The notes: generated from the letters alone by a model not told the origin. A DNA stretch of 64,000 bases from an uncultured Syntrophales bacterium (GCA_964650385.1 CAZYTP010000001.1:352-64351), one strand, 5' to 3'; counted from the stretch's first letter, positions 9,790 through 61,272 are shown. A program made the numbers and translations.

Positions 9790-10893
9790 TCAACCCCTGT
9801 TCATTTCTTTTTTCATCAGTTCTACAAAACGGCTGAAAAGATGTCGGGCATCATGGGGGCCCGGCCCCGCTTCGGGATGGAATTGGACTGAGAATAAGGG
9901 TAATTCCCTGTGTCTGATCCCCTCCAATGTACTGTCGTTGAGATTCATATGGGTAATCTCTATGGTATTCTTATCCAGTGAGTCTATATCAACACAGAAA
10001 CCGTGGTTCTGCACGGTAACTTCAATCTTTCCCGTTGCCAGGTCTTTTACCGGGTGATTTTCCCCGTGGTGACCGAATTTGAGTTTGTACGTGTTGCCAC
10101 CCAGTGCAAGGCCGAGGAGCTGTTGCCCCAGACAGATACCGAATATGGGCAGTGTTCCAATGTTGACCAAATCACGGATTGTATCAATCGCATATGTTAC
10201 GGCGGCGGGATCACCGGGTCCATTTGACAGAAGGACACCGTCAGGACGTAACTTCATTATTTCACCGGCGGTTGTATCCGCTGGCACAACGGTGATGCGG
10301 CATCCTACATCGACAAGTTGCTCAAGTATGCTGTATTTCAAACCATAGTCTAACACAATTACATGAAGGCCCTCATTTTCAGCCATGACAACATATGGTT
10401 GCTCGCAGGTCACCTCCCTGACCAGGTCCCTGCCGACCAGATCGGGAGAAGCTTTGACTTTTTCAATGAGAGATTGCGTGTCCTGGTCAACCGTCGAGAT
10501 GACGGCCCTCATGGCACCTGCTTCCCGTATATGTTTGGTAAGGGCCCGGGTATCGATCCCCTCGATTCCCATGATGTTGTGTTCTTTTAAAAAAGAATCG
10601 AGATTTTTTTCCGATCTCCAGTTGCTCGGCTTTCGGCACAACTCATTAACCACAAAACCCTCAAGCCAGATGGAACGTGACTCCGAATCTTCATCATTAA
10701 CGCCGTAATTGCCGATCAGAGGATATGTCATAACGACGATCTGGCCTTTATACGACGGATCGGTCAGAACTTCCTGATAGCCGGTCATTCCGGTATTGAA
10801 TACTACTTCGCCGTAATGTTCTCCCGGCACACCGAAGGACGTGCCTTCAAATATTCTTCCGTCTTCCAATACAAGTATTGCTTTTTGTCCCAT
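9790..10893 (-). CDS. carA: carbamoyl-phosphate synthase small subunit
   Basis: 367 aa with the GICLGQQLL amidotransferase motif and a CarA N-domain. Confidence 0.97.
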   Translation of the reverse strand: MGQKAILVLEDGRIFEGTSFGVPGEHYGEVVFNTGMTGYQEVLTDPSYKGQIVVMTYPLIGNYGVNDEDSESRSIWLEGFVVNELCRKPSNWRSEKNLDSFLKEHNIMGIEGIDTRALTKHIREAGAMRAVISTVDQDTQSLIEKVKASPDLVGRDLVREVTCEQPYVVMAENEGLHVIVLDYGLKYSILEQLVDVGCRITVVPADTTAGEIMKLRPDGVLLSNGPGDPAAVTYAIDTIRDLVNIGTLPIFGICLGQQLLGLALGGNTYKLKFGHHGENHPVKDLATGKIEVTVQNHGFCVDIDSLDKNTIEITHMNLNDSTLEGIRHRELPLFSVQFHPEAGPGPHDARHLFSRFVELMKKEMNRG

Positions 10894-14849: not shown

Positions 14850-14865
14850 TGGCACGTAATTTGAA
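14850..14865 (+). promoter_or_regulatory. Candidate sigma-54 promoter upstream of amt-glnK (weak -12)
   Basis: TGGCAC-GTAAT-TTGAA has a perfect -24 element, but the -12 is TTGA instead of TTGC. It lies 205 nt upstream of the amt ATG. Confidence 0.4.
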
Positions 14866-27410: not shown

Positions 27411-28212
27411 AATGAATACGTTTCAAAAATATCCTGTTTTATTCCCATAAGAAGTGTCCCACGTCAAACTTATTCTGTTCCCCAAACAAACAAATAAGGG
27501 CCCAAAAAAAATCTAATCCAGTCACTACCCATTCCGTGTGGATCGAATAGTGACGTAACAGCTTAATTTCACTCGTTTCATCCCGCAATTTACGGTTTAT
27601 TGACGTTGATACCCGCTCCTGTCCCCTGTCAGAATATCTGCGTTTTGTTGATAATAGGTACGGAGTAAATTTACAGGAAAATTCGTCCAATATCAACTTA
27701 TCAGGACAAACCGACCCGATAATCATCGGCGTACAATATGTCAATATTTTGACAATTATTTTCGTAAAGTGTCCGTATACAACTCGTTGGCATACAAAGC
27801 CGTTTCTAATCGCCTCCAAAAAATATTTTTGGGGTTCACCCCCTCGAATATCTCATAAAACTCTGAGCAGGGAATAAGTGTGATTGTATGAATCTCCCAA
27901 TGAGTTTCGCAGCAATTGACAGGGAGCGAACCCCGCAAGCCCCGCCCCGTGGGCGGAGAGTTTAACTTGCCTCATCGTTTTTTGAAATGTTTTGTACACA
28001 ATCAGCATCCATTTATATGTCTTCCAAAAGCGATTATTTTTGCATAATTAAATATTAGGAAGCCATAAATTGTCGTGGTGGTATGGGTTTTGCTGTTTTG
28101 TCTTAATGCACAAATTTAGTCAGGTGATTTTGCACCCGTCAAATTTTTCCAGCGGTGCCGAATGTAACGATTATACCCTTTGTGTGTATAATCTTCAGGG
28201 TTATCTTTCAAT

Positions 28213-28989
28213 ATGGGACATATTATCTGCATTACAAGCCAGAAAGGAGGCGTCGGCAAAACAACAACCGCCATCAACCTTTCGGCAGCCCTTGCCTTAG
28301 CTGAAAAAAAATCATTACTTGTAGATTGTGATCCTCAGGGCAATGCAACTTCGAGTATGGGAATAGATAAAAGCAAATTAAGAGTAACTTTGTATGATGC
28401 CATGATCGGGAATGAAATGCTAAGCAACGTGATCATTGATAGCAAAATCAGTTTTTTGAAAATGCTTCCGGCTCGTATCGATCTTGCCAGAACAGAAGCG
28501 GAACTTTTTTCGAAGCCTGGTAAAGAAAAAATACTGAGAAATTTACTCCATGATTTCAAAGATGTATATGACTATATTATCATCGACTCACCGCCTTCTC
28601 TAAGCATCCTTACGGTAAATGCGATAATCGCGGCGGATTCCTTACTGATTCCTCTTCAGTGTGAATTCTATGCATTAGAAAGTATGAGACAACTTTTAAA
28701 GACCATCCGAATCCTTAAGAAAAAATTTAACCCTGATCTTCGTATTAACGGCATACTTTTAACGATGTTTAAAAAAAATGAGGAAATATCCAGCCAGATT
28801 GCTGAAGAAGTCCGAAATCATTTCAAATACATGGTATTCAAGACAGTGGTCCCCAGAAACGTACAATTGCGGGAATCTGCTGTTCATGGAAAACCTCTGC
28901 TGCTGCAGGACATTTTATCCCAGGGGGCACGCAGCTATATGGAACTGGCAAGTGAAATCATGGCCATGAGAGCAGAGGCTGAATATTGA
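28213..28989 (+). CDS. parA: ParA/Soj-type partition ATPase
   Basis: 258 aa with the deviant Walker A SQKGGVGKTTTAINLS and VVPRNVQLRESAVHGKPL, as in chromosomal Soj. Confidence 0.9.
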   Translation: MGHIICITSQKGGVGKTTTAINLSAALALAEKKSLLVDCDPQGNATSSMGIDKSKLRVTLYDAMIGNEMLSNVIIDSKISFLKMLPARIDLARTEAELFSKPGKEKILRNLLHDFKDVYDYIIIDSPPSLSILTVNAIIAADSLLIPLQCEFYALESMRQLLKTIRILKKKFNPDLRINGILLTMFKKNEEISSQIAEEVRNHFKYMVFKTVVPRNVQLRESAVHGKPLLLQDILSQGARSYMELASEIMAMRAEAEY

Positions 28990-43880: not shown

Positions 43881-44030
43881 GCCGTATCTATAGTATATTC
43901 AGTCCTGCCTCCGGCAGGAAAACTTTTCACAAACTTGAAGGATATTTCATCCTCAACAATTCCTTCTCTGCCAACTGTGAAGCATTTTTTTTGCTTCTGC
44001 AATTGATCCGGATATCTCCTTTCCCGGGTG

Positions 44031-45527
44031 TCAGAAACTGCCAAATCTCTGTTTATAAATCGTTTGCTTTGCATTCTGGTTGATACTATAGTTACTTCTG
44101 CCGTTAAAAAAGAGCCTGTCTTTCCCCTGTTCCTTGGCTTTGTACATATTTTCATCTGCCCTTTTTATGAAATCCGTTAAATCTTCCTGATTAATATACT
44201 GTGCAATACCAATACTTATTGTTAAGTGAACAATCATTTCTGCTGCAGGGTGAAATGATTCGTCTTTAAAATCCGACCTTATTCTTTCCGCAACAAGCAT
44301 CCCTTTGCTTCCTTCAGTCTCGGGCAAAATAACCATAAACTCTTCACCACCGTATCGGTATGCAGAATCTGAACTCCGCATAGATTTTCGAATTAATTTG
44401 CCTAACTGAGCCAACACCTTATTTCCTTCCAAATGTCCGAATGAATCATTATATTTCTTGAAATTATCAACATCCAGCATCAAAAGGGTCAAAGGATGAT
44501 TATAGCGATTTACCCGTTTGATTTCTGATTTCAACTGGTTATAAAAATGCCTTGAATTATAAAGTTTCGTAAGATCATCTATAAGACTAAGTTTTTGATA
44601 TTTTTCTTTGCTTTTCTGTAGAGCTTTCTCTGTCTTTTTGTTGTCGTTAATGTCGCGTACGGATTCGATTGCGCCAATTATATTTCCATCGGAATCATAC
44701 ACGGGACTCGCCTTCCCCCACATAAACATTTCTTTTCCACCAACGATTATGGGATCATCAAGTTCGATGATCAGACAATCCCCTTTCCTGGAAACAAAAG
44801 AGATTTCTTTTCCTATTTCTTCTTCAGGCTTTAGTGCCAAATCAATCAATATGGGTCTCCTAACACCATAGAACGGTAAAGCGTATTCATATTCCCCTTT
44901 CCCCAACATATATTCCGCTCTAATACCTGTCATTTCTTCAATCGCCCGGTTCCACGCAATAACCTTTCCTTCAGAATCAATGGCGAATGTGGCATCTGGT
45001 AAAAAGTCAATAATATCACCTAATCGACGTTCCGACTCTTGCAGGGCGCCCTCTATCCGCTTTCGTTCGGTAATATCCTCTATTGCACCGTCTATCAATT
45101 GAATTTCACCATGTTCATCATACTGGATTGTTGCCGTTACTGAACACCAGACAATTGAGCCATCTTTCTGTCGGAGTTTCATTTCTTCATTTCTGACAAA
45201 ACCGTCCTTCTTAATCTTTTGAGAAAAAAGATCTCGGTCTTCCGTATTACGGTAGAGTTCGGAAGTAGAAACCTCTATAAGATCATCCAGAGAATCGTAA
45301 CCAAATATTTTGACAGCAGCAGGATTTGCCTGAAGAAATTGTCCGTGGGGTCCAGTTCTATATACACCGATATCCACATTTTCCAGCAAGGTTCGGTTTC
45401 TTTCTTCACTTTTCCGAAGTGCTTGCTCCACTTGCTTGTACTTGTCAACTTCTTTTTCTAAGCGCTTGATTTTTCGCTTCAATTGATCATATGTTGATTT
45501 TGGTGTCATTAAAAAGTCTCCGGGCAT
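44031..45527 (-). CDS. PAS-PAS-GGDEF diguanylate cyclase
   Basis: 498 aa with a coiled coil, PAS repeats, and a GGDEF domain with an intact RYGGEEF active site. Confidence 0.9.
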   Translation of the reverse strand: MPGDFLMTPKSTYDQLKRKIKRLEKEVDKYKQVEQALRKSEERNRTLLENVDIGVYRTGPHGQFLQANPAAVKIFGYDSLDDLIEVSTSELYRNTEDRDLFSQKIKKDGFVRNEEMKLRQKDGSIVWCSVTATIQYDEHGEIQLIDGAIEDITERKRIEGALQESERRLGDIIDFLPDATFAIDSEGKVIAWNRAIEEMTGIRAEYMLGKGEYEYALPFYGVRRPILIDLALKPEEEIGKEISFVSRKGDCLIIELDDPIIVGGKEMFMWGKASPVYDSDGNIIGAIESVRDINDNKKTEKALQKSKEKYQKLSLIDDLTKLYNSRHFYNQLKSEIKRVNRYNHPLTLLMLDVDNFKKYNDSFGHLEGNKVLAQLGKLIRKSMRSSDSAYRYGGEEFMVILPETEGSKGMLVAERIRSDFKDESFHPAAEMIVHLTISIGIAQYINQEDLTDFIKRADENMYKAKEQGKDRLFFNGRSNYSINQNAKQTIYKQRFGSF

Positions 45528-46245
45528 TCATGAAAACAAAAAACTCCTACACTATTTCATGAAATCACATCAGAATGCCTCGTTTTTAAATTTAAACGGG
45601 GATGAAAGACATTCTTATAATTCCCTTTCCCCCGGGTGGGAGAGGGGTGATTCATGTATTTTTCTTTCTTATCAGGAATTTTGAAAAAGCATAGACTATG
45701 CCATAATGCGATAATTGCACAATCTTCTGTAATGTCTGATAGTTAGAACTCATGGCTCAATCACCAAACAAGGAAATATCTACAAAATCACTTGCTATGT
45801 GGTTGATATGTCAAACCACTGACGTTGGGGGTATTGTTTTGAACATGGTTGGATGTGCTACCTATCTAACTGGTTTCTGACAGCTATCCCTATCTGTTCT
45901 AATACAAAAGGTTTCTTTATATAAACACCAGCGCCAAGTCCTTGGGTTTTCCTTTAAATAGTGAAAGCCGACCCCGGAGGGGCCGGCTTTGATTTAACCC
46001 TCGAAGGGGGATGATTTGCCTTGCCCCCTGAGGAAGCAAGAATGAGTTGCCCTTCACTGCGATTAAAATAATTTACGTTGTTGCTCTTCTCCCTTGTGTT
46101 CTTTGACCGGGAGCTCAGCCGCTTTGGTCAAAGATAACACTTTTTGTAAGGTTCTCGAAACGAGAGCGGTTATATAAAAATCTCAGTTAATTTGGACGGC
46201 AATCATAAAATATCATCAATGTAAATATACGCATTACATTTATTA

Positions 46246-46261
46246 TGGCACAATGCGTGCA
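46246..46261 (+). promoter_or_regulatory. Candidate sigma-54 promoter
   Basis: TGGCAC-AATGC-GTGCA has the GG and GC dinucleotides correctly spaced. It lies 218 nt upstream of the 46479 ORF. Confidence 0.55.
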
Positions 46262-46478
46262 AATATATAAATGCAAATATCTCGACGGCCACAGCCCAAT
46301 AACCCTCTAAGTAAGGGTTTATATGCGGCCGCAAAGGCTTTCCGGGCTTCTTTTTGTTCGGTTTGAATAGAACAGGTTGATTATCTGAGGGAAGTAATTT
46401 TTGCCTGTAAAGGCAAAAATTTCCTATCAGGGATCAAATACACCAAATATGCGAGGTCGCAAGAAAGGATAATGCAAT

Positions 46479-46934
46479 ATGAAAATATCAATTTATGACA
46501 TTGCGGGCAGTATCGACAACAAAAAAACAAAAAATGTCGAGAAACAATCAGGGCATAATTTTGACAAAATACTTCAAAATGAAATCAAGGGATCATCCAT
46601 ACCTGCGAATCATCAAAGATCCCTTCCTCCGATTGATAATATATCGCCAACACAATTTGAAATCGCATCCCTGGTTGATGATAAGAGACAAAACATTGAA
46701 CATGTTGAAAGTTTCATGAATGTTCTTGAAGATTATCAGAAGCAATTAGAAAACCCTGCAGTTAATCTCAAAGAGCTGGCTCCATTTGTTAATCGCCTGG
46801 AAAAGGAAGTAGAGAAAATTATGCCTTTTATGAACTCACTCCCCGACAATGATGAACTGAAGAACGTTCTCAATAAGGCCGTTATTGCATCGACCGTAGA
46901 AGTAATAAAATTCAATCGAGGTGACTACATATAA
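46479..46934 (+). CDS. hypothetical protein (151 aa)
   Basis: Good RBS context (AAGAAAGGA). No motif I can name with confidence. It vaguely resembles the small helical proteins found in flagellar operons (DUF327/YaaR-like), unverified. Confidence 0.55.
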   Translation: MKISIYDIAGSIDNKKTKNVEKQSGHNFDKILQNEIKGSSIPANHQRSLPPIDNISPTQFEIASLVDDKRQNIEHVESFMNVLEDYQKQLENPAVNLKELAPFVNRLEKEVEKIMPFMNSLPDNDELKNVLNKAVIASTVEVIKFNRGDYI

Positions 46935-47393
46935 CATCTCCACGTCTACATTTTTTTGTAAAATTCTTGCTTCAGGAATCCTTGGAAACGTATTGGCTTT
47001 TAAAAGGTTTTCATATTCTTTTTAGTCAAAAGCTTGTTTCTATGCGTACCCTCTCCTCTCTGGCATAGTCTGCCACACAATTACAAAGAGATTGAACAGC
47101 ACCTGTTCGATCTGACCTTGATCCGCTTGGCCGATACAATTCCTGCATCTGTAACAAATATTTGCCGTTAGTGTTTATTTCACTGTCACGACAAAAAGCG
47201 ATTCTTCCGAAAAACAAACTGCAATATATCGCAGGTACAATTATTGTGATACTGGGATTGTGGGCCCTGGGGAAAACGTATCTTTTGTAATGTATTTATC
47301 AAACAAGAAGTGGCCACAAAAGCCATTCAGAGGTGTTAAAATGAAGATAGTAACAGCTCAAGATACCCCTTCCTGTAAATTACTTTGCAAATT

Positions 47394-49112
47394 TCACGAA
47401 AGTTCAATACTGGAACAAGATTCCAGCATATACTTGACCCGCATGGAGATCGTGTGATTTTTCATCACGGCTTCCCTGCCCCGCTCTGCAATTTCGAGTG
47501 CTTCGTCTCCGTGTTCCAGATAATATGCTGCCTTAGAAAAAAGCTCTTCCAATGTACGGTAGGTTTCAACCTCTCTTCCCAGATCAAAAATCTCACCGAT
47601 TTCATCGCTATATTCAGCCAGAACGAAACCTCCGCAAGCCATAATATCAAAGATCCTCATCGGAACGATATCCATCTGGTAAAGCCTGTTTATATCGACA
47701 TTAATCGAGGATGCACAATAAATTTTGTTTATCTCATAAGAGTGGCCGGCACTCCCCATATATTTGACTCCGTATTGCTCTGCCATCCGCCATCCCTCAT
47801 CCCCCCATACTTTTACATCAAAATCGTTTAATCCGGCGAGATAGTTGATTCGCTTTTCCGCTGCCGCAATCTCACCTACGAGCATAAACGGATCGTGGGT
47901 CCCATTAAGACCTGAGAAGTAATTGAGGAAATCAGGGAAATGTTCACGGAGAAGATCCGGAATCACATAATTCGAAAGATCCTTTCGTTGTTCCGACAGA
48001 ACTTCTTCCAAAAGACGCACCCCTTTTCTCACCGCTTCATTGTCATCACCCAGGTACGCCTTGTAGTTTGAAAGAAAAATATCCTTACAAGCATTTGCAT
48101 TGTCAATCATACTCGATCCGACAAAGGACAGGGAAGCGCCATATTTATTTTGCTCCTCCGGTGAAAGATGCGGCGCTGATCTTTTTTCAATATCAGAAGC
48201 AAGAAAAAGATGCTCAACATTCTTAAATCCGGCTTCTACAAATTCGGATACATTGGTTTTACGATAAGTAAAGATGTAAGTCCGATCGGCCGGTGCCTTA
48301 CACGGTTTCAATCGGTCTGTTGCCGGATCTACCTCCCAGCAGACCAGATCGACGTTGTTGCTGTGGCAAAACTCAGCAAGGCCATTCATATAATTGACTG
48401 CAAAGACCACCTGTGGATTAAAACACCTGACCGTCATCTTCATTTCTTCAAGAGACAGCTTTCGTATATCAAGAGTATAAATAGAAAAACCAAGTTCCTC
48501 GAACGCTTTGCACACATCATCCGCGAAAAGATCTTCGGAACATATAATCGCCCGTTTTTCTCCCACTCCGCGCTCTATCAACTTCTGTTCATTCTTGTAA
48601 ACCTGACTCAGAAGGGGATGGTATATAACCGTGCCATACCTCGCCATACCGAGTATGTCTAAAATATCAATACCCATACGAACTTTCAGACGGCCGGATT
48701 TAAGATGTTCACTGTAGTCTTTTTGCATCAGGACAAGTCGGACAAGCCACGGATCCCGATCCCAGACAGTAATCCTGACCTTGCTGAATTGCTGCAATAT
48801 ATAATCAAGCTGCTCTCCCAATCCGATACCGAAAAGGAGTATGTTCTTTGCATCGCTAACATCACCCAGTGTGCTTTCTATCTCTTCATTATCAATAACG
48901 AAAGGTAATTGAGTCCGATGCCTCTCGTAACGAATTCCTCCGCCATCCAGAAAATGAATATGAGACCCGTCGACAGGCATGCATATCCGCTGAAATAAAT
49001 TCTCATCAATGGCGGCTAAAAATGCCAAATTCCTCTCTAATGTTGTCTCGGAAAACTGTTCCGGGAGTTTCTGATTCTTTATTGTCACTGATTCACCCTT
49101 CCTCAAAAGCAC
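47394..49112 (-). CDS. CgeB-family (DUF3880 + Glyco_trans_1_2) glycosyltransferase-like protein
   Basis: 572 aa. The C-terminus INVDINRLYQMDIVPMRIFDIMACGGFVLAEYSDEIGEIFDLGREVETYRTLEEL is typical of CgeB-like enzymes. Confidence 0.75.
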   Translation of the reverse strand: MLLRKGESVTIKNQKLPEQFSETTLERNLAFLAAIDENLFQRICMPVDGSHIHFLDGGGIRYERHRTQLPFVIDNEEIESTLGDVSDAKNILLFGIGLGEQLDYILQQFSKVRITVWDRDPWLVRLVLMQKDYSEHLKSGRLKVRMGIDILDILGMARYGTVIYHPLLSQVYKNEQKLIERGVGEKRAIICSEDLFADDVCKAFEELGFSIYTLDIRKLSLEEMKMTVRCFNPQVVFAVNYMNGLAEFCHSNNVDLVCWEVDPATDRLKPCKAPADRTYIFTYRKTNVSEFVEAGFKNVEHLFLASDIEKRSAPHLSPEEQNKYGASLSFVGSSMIDNANACKDIFLSNYKAYLGDDNEAVRKGVRLLEEVLSEQRKDLSNYVIPDLLREHFPDFLNYFSGLNGTHDPFMLVGEIAAAEKRINYLAGLNDFDVKVWGDEGWRMAEQYGVKYMGSAGHSYEINKIYCASSINVDINRLYQMDIVPMRIFDIMACGGFVLAEYSDEIGEIFDLGREVETYRTLEELFSKAAYYLEHGDEALEIAERGREAVMKNHTISMRVKYMLESCSSIELS

Positions 49113-49228
49113 TCCATTAATAATCTCTTGAGACCTATGTTATCTATTTTATTAACGTACTGTGTAACAAAGCCAGTAAACTGGCCTTTGATTAATTCAT
49201 GTGAGGTTATACAGTTTGCCATATATCC

Positions 49229-49244
49229 AGCAAGTTATGTGCCA
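49229..49244 (-). promoter_or_regulatory. Sigma-54 promoter (consensus-perfect) for the 47394-49112 gene
   Basis: The minus strand reads TGGCAC-ATAAC-TTGCT, 117 nt upstream of the ATG at 49112. Confidence 0.75.
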
Positions 49245-49527
49245 TATCATTATATGAAGCTTAGATCTTAAGCCGGTTATGTTTGTCAGGTGCGTGCAAG
49301 TATTTTCGTGTCGTTTTGTGAGACCTGAACGTTGTCAGTATTTTGACACACAGGAGCCCTACGGCTCTGTGAAACTAAACTGCAAATTCTGCCGTTTCAC
49401 GAACCAGTGAATAGAGTTTTTTCTTACTTTGCACCAGTTCGACACGATCAAAACTTGTCCAATAGGACAGGACATATAATTTCATGTTAACCTTGTTAAA
49501 AACATTGATCGAACTGTCTCCAACAAA

Positions 49528-49543
49528 TGGCACAACCTTTGCT
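49528..49543 (+). promoter_or_regulatory. Sigma-54 promoter (consensus-perfect) for the 49672-53430 genes
   Basis: TGGCAC-AACCT-TTGCT, 129 nt upstream of the ATG at 49672. Confidence 0.75.
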
Positions 49544-49671
49544 TTATGTTTAAGCCATTGCTGTATCAGTCAGCCGAAGATTTCAAATCGGCAAATGGCT
49601 GTTTTGCTTAATGGTTTGTGTTTTTATAATGTTACAACGTTTTTAAATTATAACGTTTAGACAATAGTGAT

Positions 49672-51825
49672 ATGGACAATTTATTGATTTCTTATATTGA
49701 ACCGCCACCAAATATGCATTCAGTCAGAATGCAGGATGATTACATTTCAAAACCCGGCAATATACACTTTATCCATTTGTCAAACCTACATCAATGTGCA
49801 CGTGATGTGATAAAGAAGACTGATGTTCTCGTCATTAAAGACATCTGCGATCCAGACCTCATACCTTTAATACAAGAACGTAAAAAAGTGAACAAACTGA
49901 CTGTTTATGAGTTAACTGACCTTATGATTTTCCAGCAATCAGTGCATGCCTTGAATGATCGGTACGAAATTATAAAGAATGATCATCTTCTCAAGTTACT
50001 ACTTTATCACTGCGATGTCATACAATTTAGCACACTCGATTTACAAGAAATCTATGGATATTTAAACTCTCATTTAACCGCAATCGGGGATCAAGGAAGA
50101 TATGAAACCATTGCCGAATCTTACCGTTCACTTTCAAAGTTCCGTGACGTACCCATCACCGAAAATGATAAAGGCACAAACATCTTTCAAGAATTATCAT
50201 CAATAGAAGGCGCTCAGGTATTAGAACATCACCTTTTTCTAAGGCCTGCCCGTTTTGAAGAATTACTGCACAATGGCTTAATCCTTAAAAAAGATACGAA
50301 AAAAAAGAAAGCCGCATTAGAGAGTTTCGAGGAAGCTATAAAACTATTCCCACAAAACTCCCTTCCATTCCTTCTATGTGCTTCAATAATGCCTGATCCG
50401 ATTGAGGCTCTTAGCACGGCACTAAAATTGAACCCGCAATCTATCAGTGCCTGGATTTTGCTTGCTGAAGAGTACATTAAATTACAAAACTGGAACGCTT
50501 CTTTACAGGCATTAGAATTTGCAGCAAACATGGTGCCCCACTGCGACATTCCTTATCTAAAAGCTGCTCAAATCATGAAAATCCTTAATCGAAAGGATGA
50601 GTGGTTAACGCTAATAGATAAAGCTCAATCTTCAGTATCTGCTCTTTCAATAACTTCACAGAAACTGGATGATCACACATCCTCTCGGAAAACTTCATCC
50701 TATCCCAAACGAGCTTTTTTACTTGCCTCAAAAAAAAGCATCCTTCACGATGATTGCGTGGGTGGATTAAAGGAATTGGGATGGGAAGTAAAAAGTGAAT
50801 TGTTTAGCAGCAACAGCCACAATGAACCTGATGCTCATGAAAAATTAACTCTTAAGATCCGCAATTATAATCCACACCTTGTTTTTTCTATCAATCAGGC
50901 CGGATGTGACGCGGAAGGGTATGTTTTCTCAGCCCTCTTTCAGGCTGGCATTCCAGCTGTCATCTGGTATGTGGATAATCCTTTTGCTCTTTTGCCGGAG
51001 GGCAGTGACAGGATGGTTCAACATGCCTCCGTTCTGGCGTGTTTTGATTCATCATATGTGACGGATTTACAAAATAAAACAAACATCACATCTATTAGTT
51101 TACCACTTGGGACAAATCCTAAAAGGTTTAATACTCACATATCAAATGACTTAGAATCATGGAATATTTCTTTTGTAGGCAATCTCGACCTTGATATGGT
51201 ATCACGCCAGCGGACAGCGCTCGAAACGGACCATGCTCATCTTGTTGACTTGGTGGATGAAATAGTAAAAAAATTGATGTCCGGTAAATCATCAAGAGCA
51301 TCCAGCGCGCTGTTAAAAGACATTGCTTCATTATTTTCAATCGACTGGCATGCCCTGCCCCACACTCTTAAAGAAAGAATTTGCATCGTTGCAGAAACGG
51401 ATGCTTCGGCAAAAAAGCGCGCCGAGATTATTTCAATGCTGAGCGATGAAGAAATTAAGGTCATTGGTGGCCCCGAGTGGCAACCCTTTTTGCGCCCGGA
51501 ACAACTTTTCCCCCCGGTTAATTATTTAAGTGAATTATGTCCGGTATACCAAAAAAGCCGCATCAATCTAAACATTTCGAAATTCCAGCTACGATCCGGG
51601 GTAAACCAGCGTATATTTGATGTCCCAGCAGCAGGCAGTTTTGTGTTAACCGATCAAACATCTGATCTGGAACAATATTTTCGACCAGATGAAGAGGTTG
51701 CTATTTATAGAGATGCTGAGGAAATGAAGAGCAAAGTGAAATTTTATCTAAATCATGAGCATGAAAGGCTGTCAATTATTAATAAAGCTCGTAGAAGAGT
51801 TCTGAATGAACATACATACATATAA
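49672..51825 (+). CDS. chimeric protein: GT N-half remnant + TPR module + CgeB-like glycosyltransferase domain
   Basis: 717 aa. Residues 1-145 and about 165-330 are paralogous to the N- and C-terminal parts of the next gene. The C-terminus (INLNISKFQLRSGVNQRIFDVPAAGSFVLTD) is CgeB-like. Confidence 0.75.
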   Translation: MDNLLISYIEPPPNMHSVRMQDDYISKPGNIHFIHLSNLHQCARDVIKKTDVLVIKDICDPDLIPLIQERKKVNKLTVYELTDLMIFQQSVHALNDRYEIIKNDHLLKLLLYHCDVIQFSTLDLQEIYGYLNSHLTAIGDQGRYETIAESYRSLSKFRDVPITENDKGTNIFQELSSIEGAQVLEHHLFLRPARFEELLHNGLILKKDTKKKKAALESFEEAIKLFPQNSLPFLLCASIMPDPIEALSTALKLNPQSISAWILLAEEYIKLQNWNASLQALEFAANMVPHCDIPYLKAAQIMKILNRKDEWLTLIDKAQSSVSALSITSQKLDDHTSSRKTSSYPKRAFLLASKKSILHDDCVGGLKELGWEVKSELFSSNSHNEPDAHEKLTLKIRNYNPHLVFSINQAGCDAEGYVFSALFQAGIPAVIWYVDNPFALLPEGSDRMVQHASVLACFDSSYVTDLQNKTNITSISLPLGTNPKRFNTHISNDLESWNISFVGNLDLDMVSRQRTALETDHAHLVDLVDEIVKKLMSGKSSRASSALLKDIASLFSIDWHALPHTLKERICIVAETDASAKKRAEIISMLSDEEIKVIGGPEWQPFLRPEQLFPPVNYLSELCPVYQKSRINLNISKFQLRSGVNQRIFDVPAAGSFVLTDQTSDLEQYFRPDEEVAIYRDAEEMKSKVKFYLNHEHERLSIINKARRRVLNEHTYI

Positions 51826-51882
51826 ACACCGAATGAAACAGTTAATAAACTTTTTGGGATTAATGTAATACAAAACCGAACC

Positions 51883-53430
51883 ATGATTCATAAAACTACC
51901 CCATATGATATCGTCATCGCCCAGGTCGAACCACCACAGCAGGAAGAAGGCGGTGACTATTACTACAGGACTTACGCGCCAGGCATTGCAATGGCCGAAG
52001 AAGAAGGCATATATGTTATAAATCTGACTAACGTACATCGTAAAAAGGATGCAATTGTAAGACATGCCGATGTTCTCATTTTGAAAAACGTATGCGATCC
52101 CGATATGCTCCCCTTTATCAAAGAAAGGCGGCAAGAAAAGAAACTGACTGTTTATGAGTTGGCGGACGATATTTGTGCAATTCCGCCATGGAACCCGGTA
52201 CATTTTTTTTACAAAGATCCGGAAAATCTTCTCCTTTTCAAAAGATCTGCTAACTATTGCGACTCAATGCAATTCAGCGTACCTGAGCTGAAAAAAATCT
52301 ATGGTTATCTGAACGAAGCTTCAGTTGTATTCCCAAATCAAATATCAACAGTGCCACCGGAAAAGAAATACGAAAACAAATCGGATGTCATCATCGGATG
52401 GGGCGGTTCTCACGGCCATTTAGAAGATATGGTCGATATAGCAGAAACTCTTATTGACTGGATCATGTCAAAAAACAATGTCCATCTTTTTCTTATGTGT
52501 TCAGAACCAATCTGGTCACTATTTAATCGATTGTCTGCTACACGCAAAAAGTGGTTTAAGCCTGGCTCTCTTAATGACTATTATGCATTCCTTGAAAGAA
52601 TCGATATCGGCCTTGCACCATTGAAAGATACGGCATTCAATAGATCAAGGTCGGACGTAAAGTTTTTGGAATATGCCACTCACGGTATAGTTCCTGTTGT
52701 ACAAGCAACGGTGCCATATAATTCTACCGTAAAACAAGGAATAACAGGCTTTTTGTTTAAAGATGCGACCGATATGATAGATACCCTCGGAATACTTACG
52801 GACGATATACGTCGTATCCCCGAAGTAGGAAAAGCTGCGCGCGACTACGTTACCGAAAAACGCCTCCAGCATCACCACGGAAAAGACAGAACGGAGTTTT
52901 ATAAGGCAAAACTGGCAGAGATTCGCAACGGTCAATCCGTGAAAAATGATACCAACAAAATATTTGAATCTCTTAATAATATTGAAGGCGCAATATGCAA
53001 TGGCCAGCATTTAAGATTGCTGCCCACCCGCTTTGAAAGTCTATTGCACGATGGGTTAATCTCTGGTCAAGTAGAAAATAATGCGGCATTGGCCCGGGCA
53101 CTTTTCCTGGAAGCATCTCAATTGGAACCCGAAAATTATCTCCCTTACCTGTTCGGGGCAAGTTACTCGGAAGATCCTGTTTCTTCATTACAACAGGCCA
53201 TCGAAAAAAAACCGAATTCAATAAAATCATGGATTATGCTGGGTGAAGAATATGCCAGGCAAGGGGATATTGCCAGATCAGTCCAATGTTTTGAGTCAGC
53301 TTCTGAAATTTTCCCTGAATATGAGATCCCATATATGAGGGCTGCTTCACTTATGGAAAAGGTAGGTCTTGATAGAGAAGTGAAAATTCTGACAGAAAAA
53401 TCTGAAAAACTGATCAGCCCGCTGAAATAA
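51883..53430 (+). CDS. GT-B-type glycosyltransferase with a C-terminal TPR module
   Basis: 515 aa. The central segment IIGWGGSHGHLEDM...DIGLAPLKDTAFNRSRSDVKFLEYATHGIVPV is GT-B-like. The C-terminal ~140 aa are TPR-like helices. Confidence 0.7.
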   Translation: MIHKTTPYDIVIAQVEPPQQEEGGDYYYRTYAPGIAMAEEEGIYVINLTNVHRKKDAIVRHADVLILKNVCDPDMLPFIKERRQEKKLTVYELADDICAIPPWNPVHFFYKDPENLLLFKRSANYCDSMQFSVPELKKIYGYLNEASVVFPNQISTVPPEKKYENKSDVIIGWGGSHGHLEDMVDIAETLIDWIMSKNNVHLFLMCSEPIWSLFNRLSATRKKWFKPGSLNDYYAFLERIDIGLAPLKDTAFNRSRSDVKFLEYATHGIVPVVQATVPYNSTVKQGITGFLFKDATDMIDTLGILTDDIRRIPEVGKAARDYVTEKRLQHHHGKDRTEFYKAKLAEIRNGQSVKNDTNKIFESLNNIEGAICNGQHLRLLPTRFESLLHDGLISGQVENNAALARALFLEASQLEPENYLPYLFGASYSEDPVSSLQQAIEKKPNSIKSWIMLGEEYARQGDIARSVQCFESASEIFPEYEIPYMRAASLMEKVGLDREVKILTEKSEKLISPLK

Positions 53431-53635
53431 ATTGCAGAAAACCGTGCATAACCAAATCCGGTAAGTACGGTAACAGTTTTTGTAACCGTTCACGGTTTAC
53501 AGTTGTCGGTTCACGGTTAAAAAAACAGAAGGTAGGGGAAAATTATGGGATTCTCTTTTGAAGATTTCTCGTTCCCATGTTCCCGCGTGTTAATGTGTAA
53601 CGGTAAACGGACAACCGTAAACAGTTAGCAGTTTT

Positions 53636-54844
53636 TTATATTTTCACTTTGTCCATTAACTGGCGGAATTTTTTAATTAATCTTTCCGGTTGAATGGATA
53701 ACAGGCAGGGGCTGAACTCTGTATCTTTTTCTTTGGCCTCCGGACATACACCTGTTCTCTTCCACCTGTCTTCCTCTTTAAGGTCATCTTTCCAAACCCT
53801 GTCTAAACCACAAGGAGATTTGCATGTAACACCGGAATAGTCGGCGTTTAAAGGTACGATGGTTGGATAATATCGGATCCGCAGATCAGCTCCTACAGGA
53901 CCGAACAAAACCAGTCCGGGTTTTTCTAAAGCAGCTGCAATGTGGTAGGTACAGGTATCGGCAGAAACAACCGCATCACAGTTCTTGATTGCAGTGACGT
54001 AGTCCTGAAGGCTTTTCATCTGATCGCTTAAGTTCAGAACTTCAAGCCCTAAACGACTAATCTGCTCATTGGTGCGCTGAGCATCCGTATGTTCATGAGC
54101 AGAAATGAAGAGAACATCGGGGAATTTTTCAGGCAATACGGAAAGAACATCCAGAGGAACATCCCTTGTCATAGTGCTTGTTAACCAGTGTAGGAGCACA
54201 ATTGGCCGGCCTTGATTTTTTTGCCTCATATTTAAAAAGATATTATCAATGTTTGGGGATTGCGCCAGTTGATCCGGAATGGAGGGGTACTTGTCTTTCA
54301 CCGTCGTGTAATCAATGTTGAAACAGTATAAACAATAATCTGTCAGGTTCAATTCTTTATAGAGGGACAACGACGTGCCTGGAAAATCAAGATAATAATC
54401 TGCCTCCATAAAATGACTCATCCTGACAGGCATAGGAAACAGGCGAGTAACGTCAGGATTTCCTTCATAAAGACAATGACTGACCTTTTCTGTAACCAGC
54501 CAGATCTGGGACCCCACTGGCATTTTTAGCTTAAGCTGTCTGATAGCAGAAGCCATCATTATGTGATCTCCGATACCTCCGCTCCTGATAATTATGAGTT
54601 TGCTGTTAGCTGGCAACTCTGAGGGAGAGTTCTTTAAAGGCTGAGGAAATCCCGGAATGAGGTGGGCATCGAATTTTGCCTGTAATAAAACTGGGCTATG
54701 TCTTGTCAAAAGTATGGACCCGATGGGATCATCGCACATCAGAATATTATTCAGGTCAACTCTTGGGTATGATACCGGTTCCAGATCATACACCTCTCCG
54801 AATATAGTCGCCTTTCGCTTTTGACTAACGGCCAAAAATATCAT
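53636..54844 (-). CDS. glycosyltransferase family 9 (heptosyltransferase-like)
   Basis: 402 aa with IIIRSGGIGDHIMMASAIRQLK and DAVVSADTCTYHIAAALEKPGLVLFGP. Confidence 0.8.
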   Translation of the reverse strand: MIFLAVSQKRKATIFGEVYDLEPVSYPRVDLNNILMCDDPIGSILLTRHSPVLLQAKFDAHLIPGFPQPLKNSPSELPANSKLIIIRSGGIGDHIMMASAIRQLKLKMPVGSQIWLVTEKVSHCLYEGNPDVTRLFPMPVRMSHFMEADYYLDFPGTSLSLYKELNLTDYCLYCFNIDYTTVKDKYPSIPDQLAQSPNIDNIFLNMRQKNQGRPIVLLHWLTSTMTRDVPLDVLSVLPEKFPDVLFISAHEHTDAQRTNEQISRLGLEVLNLSDQMKSLQDYVTAIKNCDAVVSADTCTYHIAAALEKPGLVLFGPVGADLRIRYYPTIVPLNADYSGVTCKSPCGLDRVWKDDLKEEDRWKRTGVCPEAKEKDTEFSPCLLSIQPERLIKKFRQLMDKVKI

Positions 54845-55331
54845 TCCCGCTCACCACTAATATTTTTATGCTCACGTATAAAAAGTTAAAAATGCCTATA
54901 TTGCTTACTGCAATAAAATATAAATATCTTCCTTAGATTAGCAATATGACTTCTTTTTATATTTCAGCATCAGATAATTGTCAAATCCAAACTGCCTTTC
55001 ATAAATATCCGATTATTTAACGGCAAATTCTTCCTATTTTATGTGCCATAAAATTGACATTATTCCCCGTAAAAACCATCCAGAAAATATAAAAGCTTGA
55101 TATTACGAGCATATTGTCCGTAAACGAACTGGCATATTTATTGCTCACATTAAATTGAAAGTTAAAGTTAAAGAAACTTTTTACGAAAATATCATTAAAT
55201 CTAAACCTCTGTTTTACAAGTACCATGAGGAAAACTTTAGTACATTTCGAAAATTGTCATGGAGGGCATCTTGTAATCCAAGGGGGCGGAGCCTACCCTG
55301 AAGTCGAGAAACATTTGCAGATTCAATCTTG

Positions 55332-56390
55332 TTAAGGAGTTTTATTTAGAATTTGCTCGACCTTATTCAGAATGGAAATTGCATCTTTTGGGCGCCCTGT
55401 TTTTATGTATATTTGGCTCATCAAAGCCGCCCCAACAGTCTTTAACATGTTGATATTTATTGGAAGGAGTAGATCAGGCATTTGACAATCCATAAGACTA
55501 TTCAGTGATTTCAGAGAGTTGCTCATGTCATTTTCTTCATAAGCAAGTCGTCCTCTGAGATACAAGCAGCGAGGATAGTTCTTTTCTATGTCTTCCGCCT
55601 TTTCCAGCCATGTCATAACCTCCGGCTGTAGTATCTGCTCTTTCTTTAAACCCAACTCTACCAATTCCAGGGCCGCGCCCAGGGCAAGGTGGCGTTTATC
55701 AGGAGCTGCAATGGATAATTCCCAGGCCTTCAGGAACGCTTCTTTCGCGCTGGCATATTTCTTCAAATCCAGCCAGGCCATCGCAGCCATATAGTGAAGG
55801 AACCCGTCATCCGGATAGTCCATAAGGTCTTCTTCCAAAAGCTTGATATTGCGCTTTTGTTTTGCAGTTACTGCACTTTGATCCGTATAACCCGTGTGGA
55901 TAATATTAATTTCCTTAAAAATAATGGGAATTCCTTTTTCCATCAGTGCCGGACGTATCTGCTCATGGACACGATATTTGAATTCGAGACCCAGGGCGTT
56001 GGGAAACATTCGAATCTGCGCTGAAGAGATTCCCGTGATTCCGTCTTGCGTGCTCTGTATAACGAATGCAAAGGCCTTTTCAGGAGGGTTTTTTTTTAAT
56101 TCTGCAATGCTGAACAACGAATTATCCGGAATGAGGTCGTCTGCATCGACATACAAAATCCACGGATTTCGCGCTTCTTTTAAGGATTTGTTTCTTGCGC
56201 AGGAAAATGAGTCGTTCCACGGAAAAAAGCTGACTTCAGCACCCATATCCTTTGCCACTTGTATGGTGTTATCTTCTGAGCCAGTGTCTACAACGACAAT
56301 TTGCTCACAAACAGGTGAAAGGCTTTTAAGCAATGATGTCAAACGATGGGCTTCATTCTTTACAATAATACAACAGGACAGAGAATACAT
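55332..56390 (-). CDS. glycosyltransferase family 2 fused to a C-terminal TPR region
   Basis: 352 aa. CCIIVKNEAHRL, VVVDTGSEDNT and YVDADD form the GT2 core, followed by a TPR-like helical region. Confidence 0.85.
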   Translation of the reverse strand: MYSLSCCIIVKNEAHRLTSLLKSLSPVCEQIVVVDTGSEDNTIQVAKDMGAEVSFFPWNDSFSCARNKSLKEARNPWILYVDADDLIPDNSLFSIAELKKNPPEKAFAFVIQSTQDGITGISSAQIRMFPNALGLEFKYRVHEQIRPALMEKGIPIIFKEINIIHTGYTDQSAVTAKQKRNIKLLEEDLMDYPDDGFLHYMAAMAWLDLKKYASAKEAFLKAWELSIAAPDKRHLALGAALELVELGLKKEQILQPEVMTWLEKAEDIEKNYPRCLYLRGRLAYEENDMSNSLKSLNSLMDCQMPDLLLPININMLKTVGAALMSQIYIKTGRPKDAISILNKVEQILNKTP

Positions 56391-56637
56391 AATATTTTAC
56401 GGGTATCAAGTTATCAAAAGGATTCAAAACATCTTCATTACAAATTTTAAACCCGGATTTTGCAACAATTATCTGCTGTATAATCTGGGTTTAACAATTT
56501 TTTCTAATGCTTGATAGTTATCACACGCATATTTTCACGTCAACTTCTGAAATTTATCATTCTGAAACTTTAAGATGAAATTTAATACGCGCAAAACGGA
56601 CCGTAATTTAACGCAACGAGAAAATAAAGGAGGTACA

Positions 56638-57183
56638 ATGAATTCACTCAATACAAAACCCTTTTTAGAAAAGAGGGAGGAACAGTTTCAGAAAAGTCAA
56701 TTGCCTTCCGAGGTTAACTCTGACATTGATAAAGTCAACGAGGAAATCCAGAAGTACCTGGAAAAAGGGGATGTTAGCGCAGCTATGCCTCTCTTTGAAA
56801 AGGCTATCCATGAAGGTAATACGAATGAAGAGTTGCTTAACAATCTCGGTTATGCCTGCTGGGAATTGGGGCATAAAGAAAAGGCGCTGGAGTGCTTCTA
56901 TAACGCTGCTATTTTAAAACCCGTAGATATGGACATCCTGGCAAATTTTGTTGACGCATCTTATGAACTCAGGCAATTCAGCCTGCTCGAAGAATACCTG
57001 CGGGTTATGGCAAACGCCAATCCAAAGGTAAATGAATATCTATATCTTCTCGCCGATTGTTTATTTAAACAAGATAGACATACAGAGGCAATAGATGCTC
57101 TGGAAGAGCTGCTATCGAAGGAACCTGATTACCCGGGAGCACAAGAGTTGATGGCTGAGTTAAAAAAAAGCAAGGTGGGGTAG
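56638..57183 (+). CDS. stand-alone TPR protein
   Basis: Start moved to the ATG at 56638 behind AAGGAGG. TPR repeats are present (LLNNLGYACWELGHKEKALECFYNAAILKP...). Confidence 0.7.
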   Translation: MNSLNTKPFLEKREEQFQKSQLPSEVNSDIDKVNEEIQKYLEKGDVSAAMPLFEKAIHEGNTNEELLNNLGYACWELGHKEKALECFYNAAILKPVDMDILANFVDASYELRQFSLLEEYLRVMANANPKVNEYLYLLADCLFKQDRHTEAIDALEELLSKEPDYPGAQELMAELKKSKVG

Positions 57184-59583: not shown

Positions 59584-61272
59584 ATGCGAACGGAATTTAC
59601 GATGGACATGAAAACAAAAATCCAGAAAGAAAAACCTTACAACAACGCCCCTTCTGCTGGGTCTCCGATGTTTGATAGTCAAACAGATAAAGCAGATGAG
59701 CAGATCATCATTTCTAGAAAGCTTGATAAAATAGAAACGCCAGATCTGCCCAGGAACGGAAAAATCAAAACGATACAAGATTTGGCAAAAATTGTTGCAG
59801 AACTCCGGACAAAAAATAAAAAAATAGTTCACTGTCACGGAGTTTTTGATCTGCTTCACATTGGCCACATCCGTTACTTCGAACAGGCACGGGAGATGGG
59901 GGACATTTTGGTAGTAACTGTCACTCCAGATCAATACGCTGGTGATGGACCAAACCATCCTGCCTTTACAGAAACACAGCGAGTCGAAACAATCGCTTCA
60001 TTAAGTTTTATCGATTATGTAGCTATCAATAACTGGCCTACTGTCGAGGAAACTTTGCGCCTTTTGAAACCTGATGTATATGTTAAAGGTCCGGAATACA
60101 AAAGCAAATTGCCGGAAACGACTGAAACACTTGCAAGTGAAGAGAAGGTTGTTAGTGAGATCGGTGCAAATATTGCCTTTACCGAAGACTTTCATTTCAG
60201 TTCCACTAACCTGATTAATCGCTACTTATTGGATCTGCCGGATGAAATTAATAAATATCTTCATCTGTTTCGCCAGCGCTGCACACTCGATAATGTTTTG
60301 GGAATCCTTGATAATATGGCTTCACTAAATGTATTGGTTATAGGCGATACGATTCTGGACGAATACCAGTATTGCAATGCAATAGGCAAATCTTCCAAAG
60401 ACCCTACCCTTGCTCTGAAGTATCAATCCCATGATTTATTCGCCGGCGGTATCCTTGCTGTTGCAAATCATGTGGCTAACTTTGCCAATAAGGTGCAACT
60501 TATAACCGTAATAGGGGAACATAACAGCCACGAAGAGTTTATCCGATCACAGCTCCATCCCAATATTTCACCATTTTTTTTCATTCAACCCGATGCACCG
60601 ACGTTGATAAAACGCCGTTTTATTGACAGCTATTCGACTAACAAACTTTTCGAGGTGTACGTCATGGATGACTCAGGCCTTCCCCCGGAAAAAAACAATG
60701 AAGTATGCCGCTGGCTCCAGGACGAACTCTCGGAATATGATCTCGTTATTGCAGCGGATTATGGCCATGGAGCCATAAGTAAAGAAATAGTCCGAACACT
60801 TTCAAGAAAATCAAGGTTCCTGGCGGTAAATACCCAGGCTAATGCGGGTAATCGCGGTTTGCATAGTGTGACCCGATATCCACGCGCTGACTATGCGTGC
60901 ATTGCGGAACACGAGTTACGCCTTGAAACCCGAACACAAAATGGCATGATCCGGCCATTAATGGATTTTCTTGCACAGAAGCTAGGCTGTTCTCAATTCG
61001 TAGTTACGCGCGGAAGAAAAGGTTGTGCTGTGTGTGACGAAAATGGGGGATTCGTTGATATACCATCATTTGCCCAAAACATTGTCGATAGAGTGGGCGC
61101 GGGTGATGCTTTCTTCTCAGTGACCAGTCTCGCTTCAGCTCTTGGAGCGCCCATCGAGGTTCTCGGATTTATAGGAAATGTGGTGGGCTCATTAGCTGTC
61201 GGGACTCTGGGTAATAAAAAATCTATAGATAAAACAAGTGTTCAGAACTACATTACTTCTCTTTTGAAATGA
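59584..61272 (+). CDS. bifunctional cytidylyltransferase-like nucleotidyltransferase (N-terminal) + PfkB sugar kinase (C-terminal); HldE-like with reversed domain order
   Basis: HCHGVFDLLHIGHIRYFEQAREMGDILVVTVTPD is a (H/T)xGH nucleotidyltransferase. The C-terminal half has NVLVIGDTILDEY and DRVGAGDAFFS (PfkB motifs). The start is uncertain (alternative Met codons at 59602 and 59608). Confidence 0.8.
   Translation: MRTEFTMDMKTKIQKEKPYNNAPSAGSPMFDSQTDKADEQIIISRKLDKIETPDLPRNGKIKTIQDLAKIVAELRTKNKKIVHCHGVFDLLHIGHIRYFEQAREMGDILVVTVTPDQYAGDGPNHPAFTETQRVETIASLSFIDYVAINNWPTVEETLRLLKPDVYVKGPEYKSKLPETTETLASEEKVVSEIGANIAFTEDFHFSSTNLINRYLLDLPDEINKYLHLFRQRCTLDNVLGILDNMASLNVLVIGDTILDEYQYCNAIGKSSKDPTLALKYQSHDLFAGGILAVANHVANFANKVQLITVIGEHNSHEEFIRSQLHPNISPFFFIQPDAPTLIKRRFIDSYSTNKLFEVYVMDDSGLPPEKNNEVCRWLQDELSEYDLVIAADYGHGAISKEIVRTLSRKSRFLAVNTQANAGNRGLHSVTRYPRADYACIAEHELRLETRTQNGMIRPLMDFLAQKLGCSQFVVTRGRKGCAVCDENGGFVDIPSFAQNIVDRVGAGDAFFSVTSLASALGAPIEVLGFIGNVVGSLAVGTLGNKKSIDKTSVQNYITSLLK

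Follow-up and report, generated by a model that had tools for sequence, protein, structure and literature searches.

Back-to-back sigma-54 promoters and a predicted FlrA/FleQ-type enhancer between divergent glycosyltransferase genes of an uncultured Syntrophales bacterium

In a 64,000-nucleotide (nt) stretch of DNA from an uncultured Syntrophales bacterium (GCA_964650385.1, CAZYTP010000001.1:352-64351; hereafter the window, to whose first letter all unlabeled coordinates refer), two divergent genes for CgeB-like glycosyltransferases are separated by a 559-bp spacer that carries what are, judged from the sequence, two genuine sigma-54 promoters that fire outward. Between them lies a perfect dyad that we regard as a predicted enhancer for an FlrA/FleQ-type enhancer-binding protein (EBP), and the genes on either side would have flagellin glycosylation as their likely function. 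To this explanation as a whole we assign a probability of roughly 0.6. The sequence features, their conservation, the geometry of boxes and promoters and the gene context in relatives were computed; from these we infer which type of activator acts here, that both arms share the enhancer and that the substrate is flagellin.

Two outward-firing sigma-54 promoters

The elements of the spacer and the genes that flank it are as follows.

49229-49244, minus strand: sigma-54 promoter of the minus arm, TGGCACATAACTTGCT (plus-strand letters AGCAAGTTATGTGCCA), exact consensus
49528-49543, plus strand: sigma-54 promoter of the plus arm, TGGCACAACCTTTGCT, exact consensus
49333-49348, no strand: main predicted enhancer box TGTCA-GTATTT-TGACA (TGTCAGTATTTTGACA), perfect 5-bp arms and a 6-nt spacer
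49285-49298, no strand: possible weaker second box GTCAGGTGCGTGCA, two mismatches, -73.5 from the minus start and 49 nt from the main box
49381-49393, no strand: candidate second enhancer element TGCAAATTCTGCC, GGMA-N5-TKCC-like (FlbD/DVU1063 type), one mismatch
47394-49112, minus strand: minus-arm gene, 572-residue CgeB-like glycosyltransferase, GTG start, Glyco_trans_1_2 and DUF3880 domains
49672-51825, plus strand: plus-arm gene 1, 717-residue CgeB-like glycosyltransferase, ATG start, Glyco_trans_1_2 and DUF3880 domains, matches to tetratricopeptide repeats (TPR) below the Pfam curated cut-offs
51883-53430, plus strand: plus-arm gene 2, 515-residue protein, weak TPR and glycosyltransferase matches, all under the Pfam curated cut-offs

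Both promoters fit all 11 specified positions of the consensus TGGCACN5TTGCW, with GG at -24, GC at -12 and 10 nt between the dinucleotides; both are in a non-coding position, each is directed at a gene, and they point apart. They are the only two exact matches in the window, where 0.07 would be expected, and none of 100 shuffles gave two; at one mismatch there are seven matches against 1.9 expected. An earlier note on this DNA had described a pair of consensus-perfect, back-to-back sigma-54 sites that were unlikely to have arisen by chance, and direct reading at 49229-49244 (minus strand) and 49528-49543 (plus strand), together with the counts above, bears this out. Its distances from promoter to open reading frame (ORF), 117 nt in the minus arm and 129 nt in the plus arm, are also right, the ORFs starting at 49112 and 49672.

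Transcription is predicted to start at about 49218 in the minus arm and at about 49554 in the plus arm; the leaders would then extend for about 106 nt up to the GTG at 49112 and for about 118 nt up to the ATG at 49672. The latter start codon is backed by the N-terminus of the protein (MDNLLISYIEPP), which aligns with that of the homologue in locus L002. No sigma-70-like promoter was found in 49050-49720 (1.9 expected), and a scan of the spacer with the sigma-28 consensus gave nothing convincing. A 52-residue ORF called by the Joint Genome Institute on the minus strand (49375-49533) was rejected as coding, its frame being disrupted by a 2-nt indel in the relative L010 described below. The minus-arm leader also contains an inverted repeat, GCCAGTAAACTGGC at 49172-49185 (about +33 to +46), which reads ACCAGTAAACTGGT in L010; this is a double change that preserves pairing, as expected of an RNA hairpin or of a dyad bound by a protein.

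A GTCA-N6-TGAC box at a fixed distance from sigma-54 promoters

The palindrome TGTCA-GTATTT-TGACA reported in the earlier note is present at 49333-49348 and is perfect, its center lying at -122.5 from the minus start and at -213.5 from the plus start. As a bare inverted repeat it is unremarkable, the spacer having 17 repeats with five-bp arms. The note had assigned it to the TGT-N10-ACA architecture of EBP sites, and formally it fits; however, this pattern is not enriched in the window (11 copies against about 19 expected), and a NifA-type label does not hold. It is better described as yGTCA-N6-TGACr, of the FlrA/FleQ/DVU2894 type, every specified position of which it matches, with a spacer that is A/T-rich like that of FleQ boxes. 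The core GTCA-N6-TGAC occurs seven times in the window against about 0.7 expected, and the extended form TGTCA-N6-TGACA twice against 0.07. The enrichment is confined to a spacer length of 6, and on these counts we consider that this form of the palindrome is not due to chance. Four more exact copies of GTCA-N6-TGAC are coding (at 10409 in carA, 29338 in a 178-residue ORF, 33273 in a helix-turn-helix receiver gene and 36192 in cheB). A second palindrome in the spacer, TGTCC-AATA-GGACA (49456-49469), was rejected, as it is not kept in L010.

The most telling evidence that the dyad is an enhancer comes from its position. We collected 22 sigma-54-like promoters from 11 non-redundant sources, requiring GG and GC and a match to at least 10 of the 11 consensus positions, and mapped the GTCA-N6-TGAC boxes with no more than one mismatch relative to their starts. 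In the bin from -125 to -100 there are seven boxes at six promoters against 0.22 expected (Poisson probability 4.5e-9, or about 2e-7 allowing for 40 bins). Two of these boxes belong to window promoters, at -122.5 from 49229 (minus strand) and at -104.5 from 55130 (plus strand), and the others are found in L009 (-114.5), L011 (-106.5), L013 (-115.5 and -104.5) and L016 (-119.5), four other lineages in which homologous glycosyltransferase operons bear a sigma-54 promoter and a box:

L009: back-to-back pair, TGGCATTTTTATTGCA at 4109-4124 (minus strand) and TGGCATTCTTCTTGCA at 4498-4513 (plus strand), the latter heading a glycan operon, with the exact boxes GTCATATTTTTGAC and GTCAGAAGATTGAC between them
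L011: box TGTCATGATAGTGACA at -106.5 of TGGCATATATTTTGCA, a promoter heading a glycosyltransferase gene
L012/L013: back-to-back pair, TGGCAAGCATCTTGCT directed at fliD (minus arm) and TGGCACGATAAATGCT directed at the homologue, with the one-mismatch boxes GaCATTGCTCTGAC and GaCATTTTATTGAC between them
L016: box GTCAAAATCCTGgC at -119.5 of the exact promoter TGGCACACAAGTTGCT

Because the boxes cluster at a fixed offset from the sigma-54 promoters of homologous operons, the dyad at 49333-49348 would be an enhancer rather than a chance palindrome, and this positional pile-up is the strongest evidence for it. In the other divergent pairs, boxes lie at -194 to -258 from the distal promoter.

The candidate element TGCAAATTCTGCC stands exactly midway between the promoters, at -169 and -167 from the two starts. 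It was found in a scan for GGMA-N5-TKCC in which only matches with at most one mismatch were retained, the two-mismatch level being too noisy.

Conservation of the spacer

The closest named relative is an uncultured Syntrophales metagenome-assembled genome, L010, with a protein that is 85% identical and a spacer that is 84% identical overall. Both promoters are free of substitution in L010, the minus promoter (L010 5432-5447) together with its flank (ACAGTTTGCCATATATC.AGCAAGTTATGTGCCAT) and the plus promoter (L010 5733-5748) together with its flanks (CAAATGGCACAACCTTTGCTTTATGTTTAAGC). A 20-nt block around the palindrome (TTGTCAGTATTTTGACACAC) is 100% conserved. The weaker box at 49285-49298 retains its arms and has an altered spacer (GTCAGGCATCTGCA), and in the midpoint element the right half (AATTCTGCCGTTTCA) is 100% conserved, whereas the left half is not. 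The plus-arm leader of L010 also carries, directly before the start codon, an insertion of about 100 nt (L010 5890-5990) that is absent from the window at the corresponding place (49660).

The comparative set is small: homologues of the 717-residue protein are rare (nine proteins at E <=1e-10), and genome and metagenome scans with protein alignment gave 3 and 2 loci, respectively. The protein in L005 (88% identical) lies on a contig that stops 32 nt upstream of the gene, which places its promoter region outside the comparison. An exact look-up of the 717-residue protein gave no hit, whereas a 713-residue protein call assigned the window to JGI metagenome 3300028193.

Gene content and context of the homologues

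The earlier note had called the two divergent genes CgeB-like/TPR. The CgeB-like assignment stands for both, and TPR matches, below the Pfam curated cut-offs, come from the plus-strand protein. The minus-arm and plus-arm proteins are distant paralogues with 26% identity; a recent inverted duplication as the source of the two arms was rejected in view of this divergence and of promoter flanks that are alike in the consensus only. Plus-arm gene 2 is probably in the same transcription unit as gene 1.

From 47.4 kb on, the window contains a glycan island that comprises the two CgeB-like transferases, the 515-residue protein, GT9, GT2-TPR and GT4 transferases, an HldE-like kinase/nucleotidyltransferase, a GmhB-like phosphatase, a nucleotidyltransferase and a GmhA-like SIS protein. 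The HldE-like enzyme (59584-61272) has its domain order reversed relative to E. coli HldE, with the nucleotidyltransferase at residues 70-213 and the PfkB-type kinase at 243-548. A chemotaxis cluster (cheR, cheD, cheB, cheA and cheX) occupies 33.7-40.2 kb, and the housekeeping genes of the window include citrate synthase, carAB, guaA, aspS, purF, amtB and the carbon monoxide (CO) dehydrogenase/acetyl-CoA synthase (CODH/ACS) genes. Among all window ORFs of at least 400 residues, no Pfam match to the sigma-54 activator family was found, and neither a GAFTGA or GAFTGA-like motif nor an EBP Walker A motif nor an RpoN box is present in the six-frame translation of the window; both scans bear out the claim of the earlier note that the EBP is not encoded in the window, and rpoN is likewise absent from it.

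Synteny of the homologue clusters was seen in five loci, all of other lineages (L002, L006, L009, L012 and L015), and four of the five abut flagellar filament genes. Flagellin and then fliD come after the cluster in L002 and L006; in L015 it adjoins flagellin-fliD-fliS-flaG; in L012/L013 (Candidatus Desulfatibia vada) the homologue is divergent from fliD; the syntenic cluster of L009 is without a flagellar gene in the stretch examined. Because the homologues adjoin flagellin, fliD, fliS and flaG, we consider on the basis of this context that the island probably serves to glycosylate flagellin and belongs to the flagellar sigma-54 regulon.

Two further observations concern these loci. The fliD genes have sigma-54 promoters of their own (TGGCAGGTATCTTGCT in L002, 13827-13922; TGGCAGGATTCTTGCT in L006, 15412-15466; TGGCAAGCATCTTGCT in L013, 7512-7606), with paired GGMA-N5-TKCC sites at about +31 and +62 in L002 and L013 and a single site at about +22 in L006; a downstream position has been reported for the sites of FlbD/DVU1063-type activators. 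Moreover, a short frame in L002 (MDNLLIAHIKPPN..., 4519-4560), located in the spacer upstream of a TPR gene, resembles the N-terminus of the 717-residue family and may be the remnant of a lost paralogue.

Other box-promoter modules and a conserved leader

Boxes of the same kind accompany other sites of the window:

45688-46261 (within 45528-46478): neighboring module, with TGGCATAGTCTATGCT at 45688-45703 (minus strand) directed at a PAS-GGDEF gene and TGGCACAATGCGTGCA at 46246-46261 (plus strand) directed at a 151-residue ORF
55045-55145, plus strand: third module, with the one-mismatch box GcCATAAAATTGAC at 55045-55058, at -104.5 from TGGCATATTTATTGCT at 55130-55145
27739-27754, no strand: palindrome copy TGTCAATATTTTGACA, 15/16 identical to the main box, with a GGAAAATTCGTCC site about 65 nt to its left

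The box of the neighboring module, GTCAAACCACTGAC at 45810-45823, is centered at -139.5 from the start of the PAS-GGDEF gene. All three elements of the module are retained in L010 despite indels of more than 100 nt, the arms of the box being kept and its spacer changed. FleQ binds cyclic di-GMP in Pseudomonas, which makes the pairing of a FleQ-type box with a diguanylate cyclase gene suggestive. The 151-residue ORF at 46479 matches no family and does not resemble the small ORFs of L009 or L015. The TGTCAATATTTTGACA copy and the GGAAAATTCGTCC site are flanked by a CO-dehydrogenase gene on the minus strand and by a ParA-like gene on the plus strand, the latter standing at the head of the che region; the sole sigma-54-like site near the copy is the weak TGGTATGGGTTTTGCT (28079-28094), 358 nt off. 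Elsewhere in the window, TGGCACGTAATTTGAA (14850-14865), which precedes the ammonium transporter gene by 139 nt, is sigma-54-like, but GA replaces GC at -12.

The third module belongs to a leader that recurs exactly once in each of four independent lineages, namely, the window (55022-55300, plus strand) with L010 (11338-11680), L009 (4498-4885), L011 (414-603) and L016 (222-740). It has a constant order: a box with a sigma-54 promoter, AAAGTTAAAGTTAAA at about +2 to +16, 100-480 variable nt and a near-invariant core, TGTAAYCCARGGGGGCGGAGCY. This core is located about 20-90 nt before the first transferase gene in L009, L011 and L016. In the window (55130-55300) and in L010 no plus-strand gene follows the leader, and the transcript would enter the 3' end of the convergent GT2-TPR gene; in L010 the leader is followed by a terminator-like hairpin that is specific to the plus strand. 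An Rfam scan of 44000-57000 gave no match at E up to 1, and folding of the leader at 55156-55335 and of its L010 counterpart gave no significant structure (z = 0.85 and -1.44, respectively). This element is a candidate small RNA or leader and is more unusual than the promoter pair itself.

Discussion

Our working model is that the sigma-54 holoenzyme would remain closed on each promoter until an AAA+ EBP, bound between the two, loops over and remodels it. The main enhancer would be the dyad at 49333-49348, and its likeliest ligand would be a flagellar regulator of the FlrA/FleQ type. According to a prediction by Kazakov et al. 2015 (PMC4641369), DVU2894, an FlrA/FleQ-like EBP of Desulfovibrio, has yGTCA-N6-TGACr as its motif; these authors also drew attention to GTCA-N6-TGGC in the FlrA-bound flrBC region of V. 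cholerae. The dyad further resembles GTCaNTAAAtTGAC and GTCAaAAAAtTGAC, proposed FleQ boxes of Pseudomonas. Given this match of motifs, we rather favor an EBP of the DVU2894 type, encoded elsewhere in the genome, as the cognate activator. In the simplest version of the model, a single bound oligomer would activate both arms, the distance of -122 being canonical for the minus promoter and that of -213, though beyond the roughly 80-150 nt typical of EBP sites, falling within looping range of the plus promoter. A single enhancer shared by both arms is plausible, as the arrangement is geometrically possible and recurs in other divergent pairs, and the target genes would most likely glycosylate flagellin and thus be part of the sigma-54 flagellar regulon. 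The one EBP that the earlier note proposed for both arms may nevertheless be too simple, in view of the midpoint site and of the separate downstream sites at fliD in L013.

Several points weigh against this explanation. The plus arm is without a box at -100 to -125, and the canonical distance holds for the minus arm alone; no consensus for integration host factor (IHF) was found between the box and the promoters, the sole match to WATCAANNNNTTR with at most one mismatch (49121-49133) lying outside the inter-promoter segment. The promoter score of the positional test is a simple consensus count and not a trained matrix. L010 is too near (84%) for strong footprinting, and the spacer holds other long conserved blocks. 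Several GTCA-N6-TGAC copies fall within genes, and the intergenic copies alone do not explain the sevenfold-plus excess at spacer length 6. As for the motif, the DVU2894 consensus matched by the dyad is itself a prediction, and the P. aeruginosa FleQ motif occurs hundreds of times outside chromatin immunoprecipitation (ChIP) peaks, which makes the consensus unreliable genome-wide. The near-identical copy at 27739, upstream of the CO-dehydrogenase gene, allows a reading of the CRP/CooA type. Finally, no flagellin or flagellar structural gene is present in the 64-kb window, and the link to flagella comes from homologues that are 42-57% identical and from the che cluster at 33.7-40.2 kb.

The main rival, which we hold to be unlikely, invokes two activators: the palindrome would serve the minus promoter only, and the plus promoter would depend on an EBP of the FlbD/FlrC/DVU1063 type bound at TGCAAATTCTGCC or at another element. 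In the positional test the box stands at -213.5 from the plus start, as against -104 to -122 from the nearest promoter for the other instances, and a GGMA-N5-TKCC-like site occupies the exact midpoint at 49381-49393, close copies of this 13-mer being found within 65 nt of other window boxes (GGAAAATTCGTCC at 27676 and GGCAAATTCTTCC at 55022). The paired sites at about +31/+62 of the L002 and L013 fliD promoters match both the reported downstream position of DVU1063 sites and the DVU1063/FlbD motif, which is GGCAxxxxTGCC for DVU1063 and similar (GGCA-N4/5-TGCC) for Caulobacter FlbD. However, the midpoint site has one mismatch and has lost its left half in L010, coding sequence often contains matches at 1-2 mismatches, no such site is found near the glycosyltransferase promoters of L009 and L011, and action of EBPs from more than 200 bp is known. 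A different doubt concerns the targets, as the genes could make exopolysaccharide, S-layer or another envelope glycan and the module could be part of a sigma-54 regulon for the "cell exterior" that is under another activator. The window has no flagellar structural gene, the CgeB-like, GT2, GT4 and GT9 transferases and the heptose-nucleotide pathway are generic glycan genes, and the largest group of Desulfovibrio sigma-54 operons comprises flagella and cell-exterior functions, including exopolysaccharide and biofilm (PMC4641369). We nonetheless consider this quite improbable, since the box fits the motif of a flagellar regulator and the homologue cluster is syntenic in five loci of other lineages, of which four abut flagellin or fliD.

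Very improbable, in our view, is that the palindrome is not a sigma-54 enhancer at all but an operator for a regulator of the CRP/FNR/CooA family or for another non-AAA+ dimeric regulator. TGTCA-N6-TGACA does share its arm length and spacing with sites of the CRP family (TGTGA-N6-TCACA for CRP and TGTCA-N6-CGACA for CooA), and the copy at 27739-27754, identical at 15/16 positions, precedes the CO-dehydrogenase gene by about 330 nt. Yet operators of the CRP/FNR family read TGTGA-N6-TCACA or TTGAT-N4-ATCAA and each half-site of the dyad has one mismatch to the former, the spacer has no sigma-70-like promoter on which such a regulator could act, and the offset of -104 to -122 in five lineages is the geometry of an enhancer, unlike the -41.5/-61.5 of CRP-type activators. 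The same dyad has, moreover, been predicted independently for a flagellar EBP. We therefore retain the FlrA/FleQ-type enhancer as the best explanation of the dyad.

The FlrA/FleQ-type regulon (DVU2894, FleQ class II and FlrA) resembles the present locus in combining a sigma-54 promoter with an upstream GTCA-N6-TGAC dyad, an A/T-rich spacer and motility-linked targets. Its known targets are basal-body and regulatory genes, whereas the targets here are glycosyltransferase genes in a Syntrophales-like member of the Desulfobacterota, and the activator would be encoded outside the window. Sites of Pseudomonas FleQ lie upstream or downstream of the sigma-54 motif, whereas the box lies at a fixed -104 to -122 here. 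In P. putida, FleQ-dependent sigma-54 promoters with FleQ-like boxes have been described for the entire flagellar cluster, and a FleQ-dependent promoter upstream of parC in its chemotaxis part parallels the window box upstream of the ParA-like gene at 28213. The putative flagellin glycosyltransferase of H. pylori (flaB-jhp0106) is likewise RpoN-dependent and expressed with the late flagellar genes; it is co-transcribed from the flaB promoter, whereas the transferase genes here have dedicated promoters and an enhancer.

The divergent design also has precedents. In E. coli, zraP/zraSR are a divergent sigma-54 pair under one EBP. The established orp1/orp2-OrpR system (DVU2106) of D. vulgaris has an outward sigma-54 pair with EBP palindromes in a common spacer and one EBP that synchronizes the two, and the same divergent design has been predicted for the type III secretion operons on pDV1 with DVUA0100. 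Outward sigma-54 promoters with palindromes between them are found here as in orp and recur in L009 and L013; however, the orp and type III secretion loci encode their own EBP, and orp has mapped IHF sites, while scans of the 64-kb window and of the spacer found neither here, and the enhancer is asymmetric (-122, -213) compared with orp-type pairs. The dyad formally fits the NifA upstream activating sequence TGT-N10-ACA and precedes a sigma-54 promoter by about 100 nt, but a nif context is absent, the arms are GTCA/TGAC (4-5 bp) rather than TGT/ACA alone, and the pattern is unenriched.

The control design is thus already known, and our understanding of sigma-54 control is left unchanged; what is new is the lineage, the class of targets and the tight geometry of -104 to -122. 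The analysis provides a precise cis-regulatory map, with two promoters, a main enhancer and a possible second site, for an uncultured Syntrophales-like organism, and takes the predicted DVU2894-like box beyond Desulfovibrio, to other members of the Desulfobacterota and to probable flagellin-glycosylation genes. It also yields an annotation rule for such islands in metagenomes, namely, a box centered 104-122 nt upstream of a sigma-54 start. We tentatively suggest that the flagellin-glycosylation islands of Syntrophales and Desulfobacterales may form a class of their own in the flagellar hierarchy, with an FlrA-type enhancer at -104 to -122, often back-to-back, coupled to a so far undescribed leader or small RNA. 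Should this leader prove to function as RNA, flagellar glycosylation would have a new regulatory RNA linked to it.

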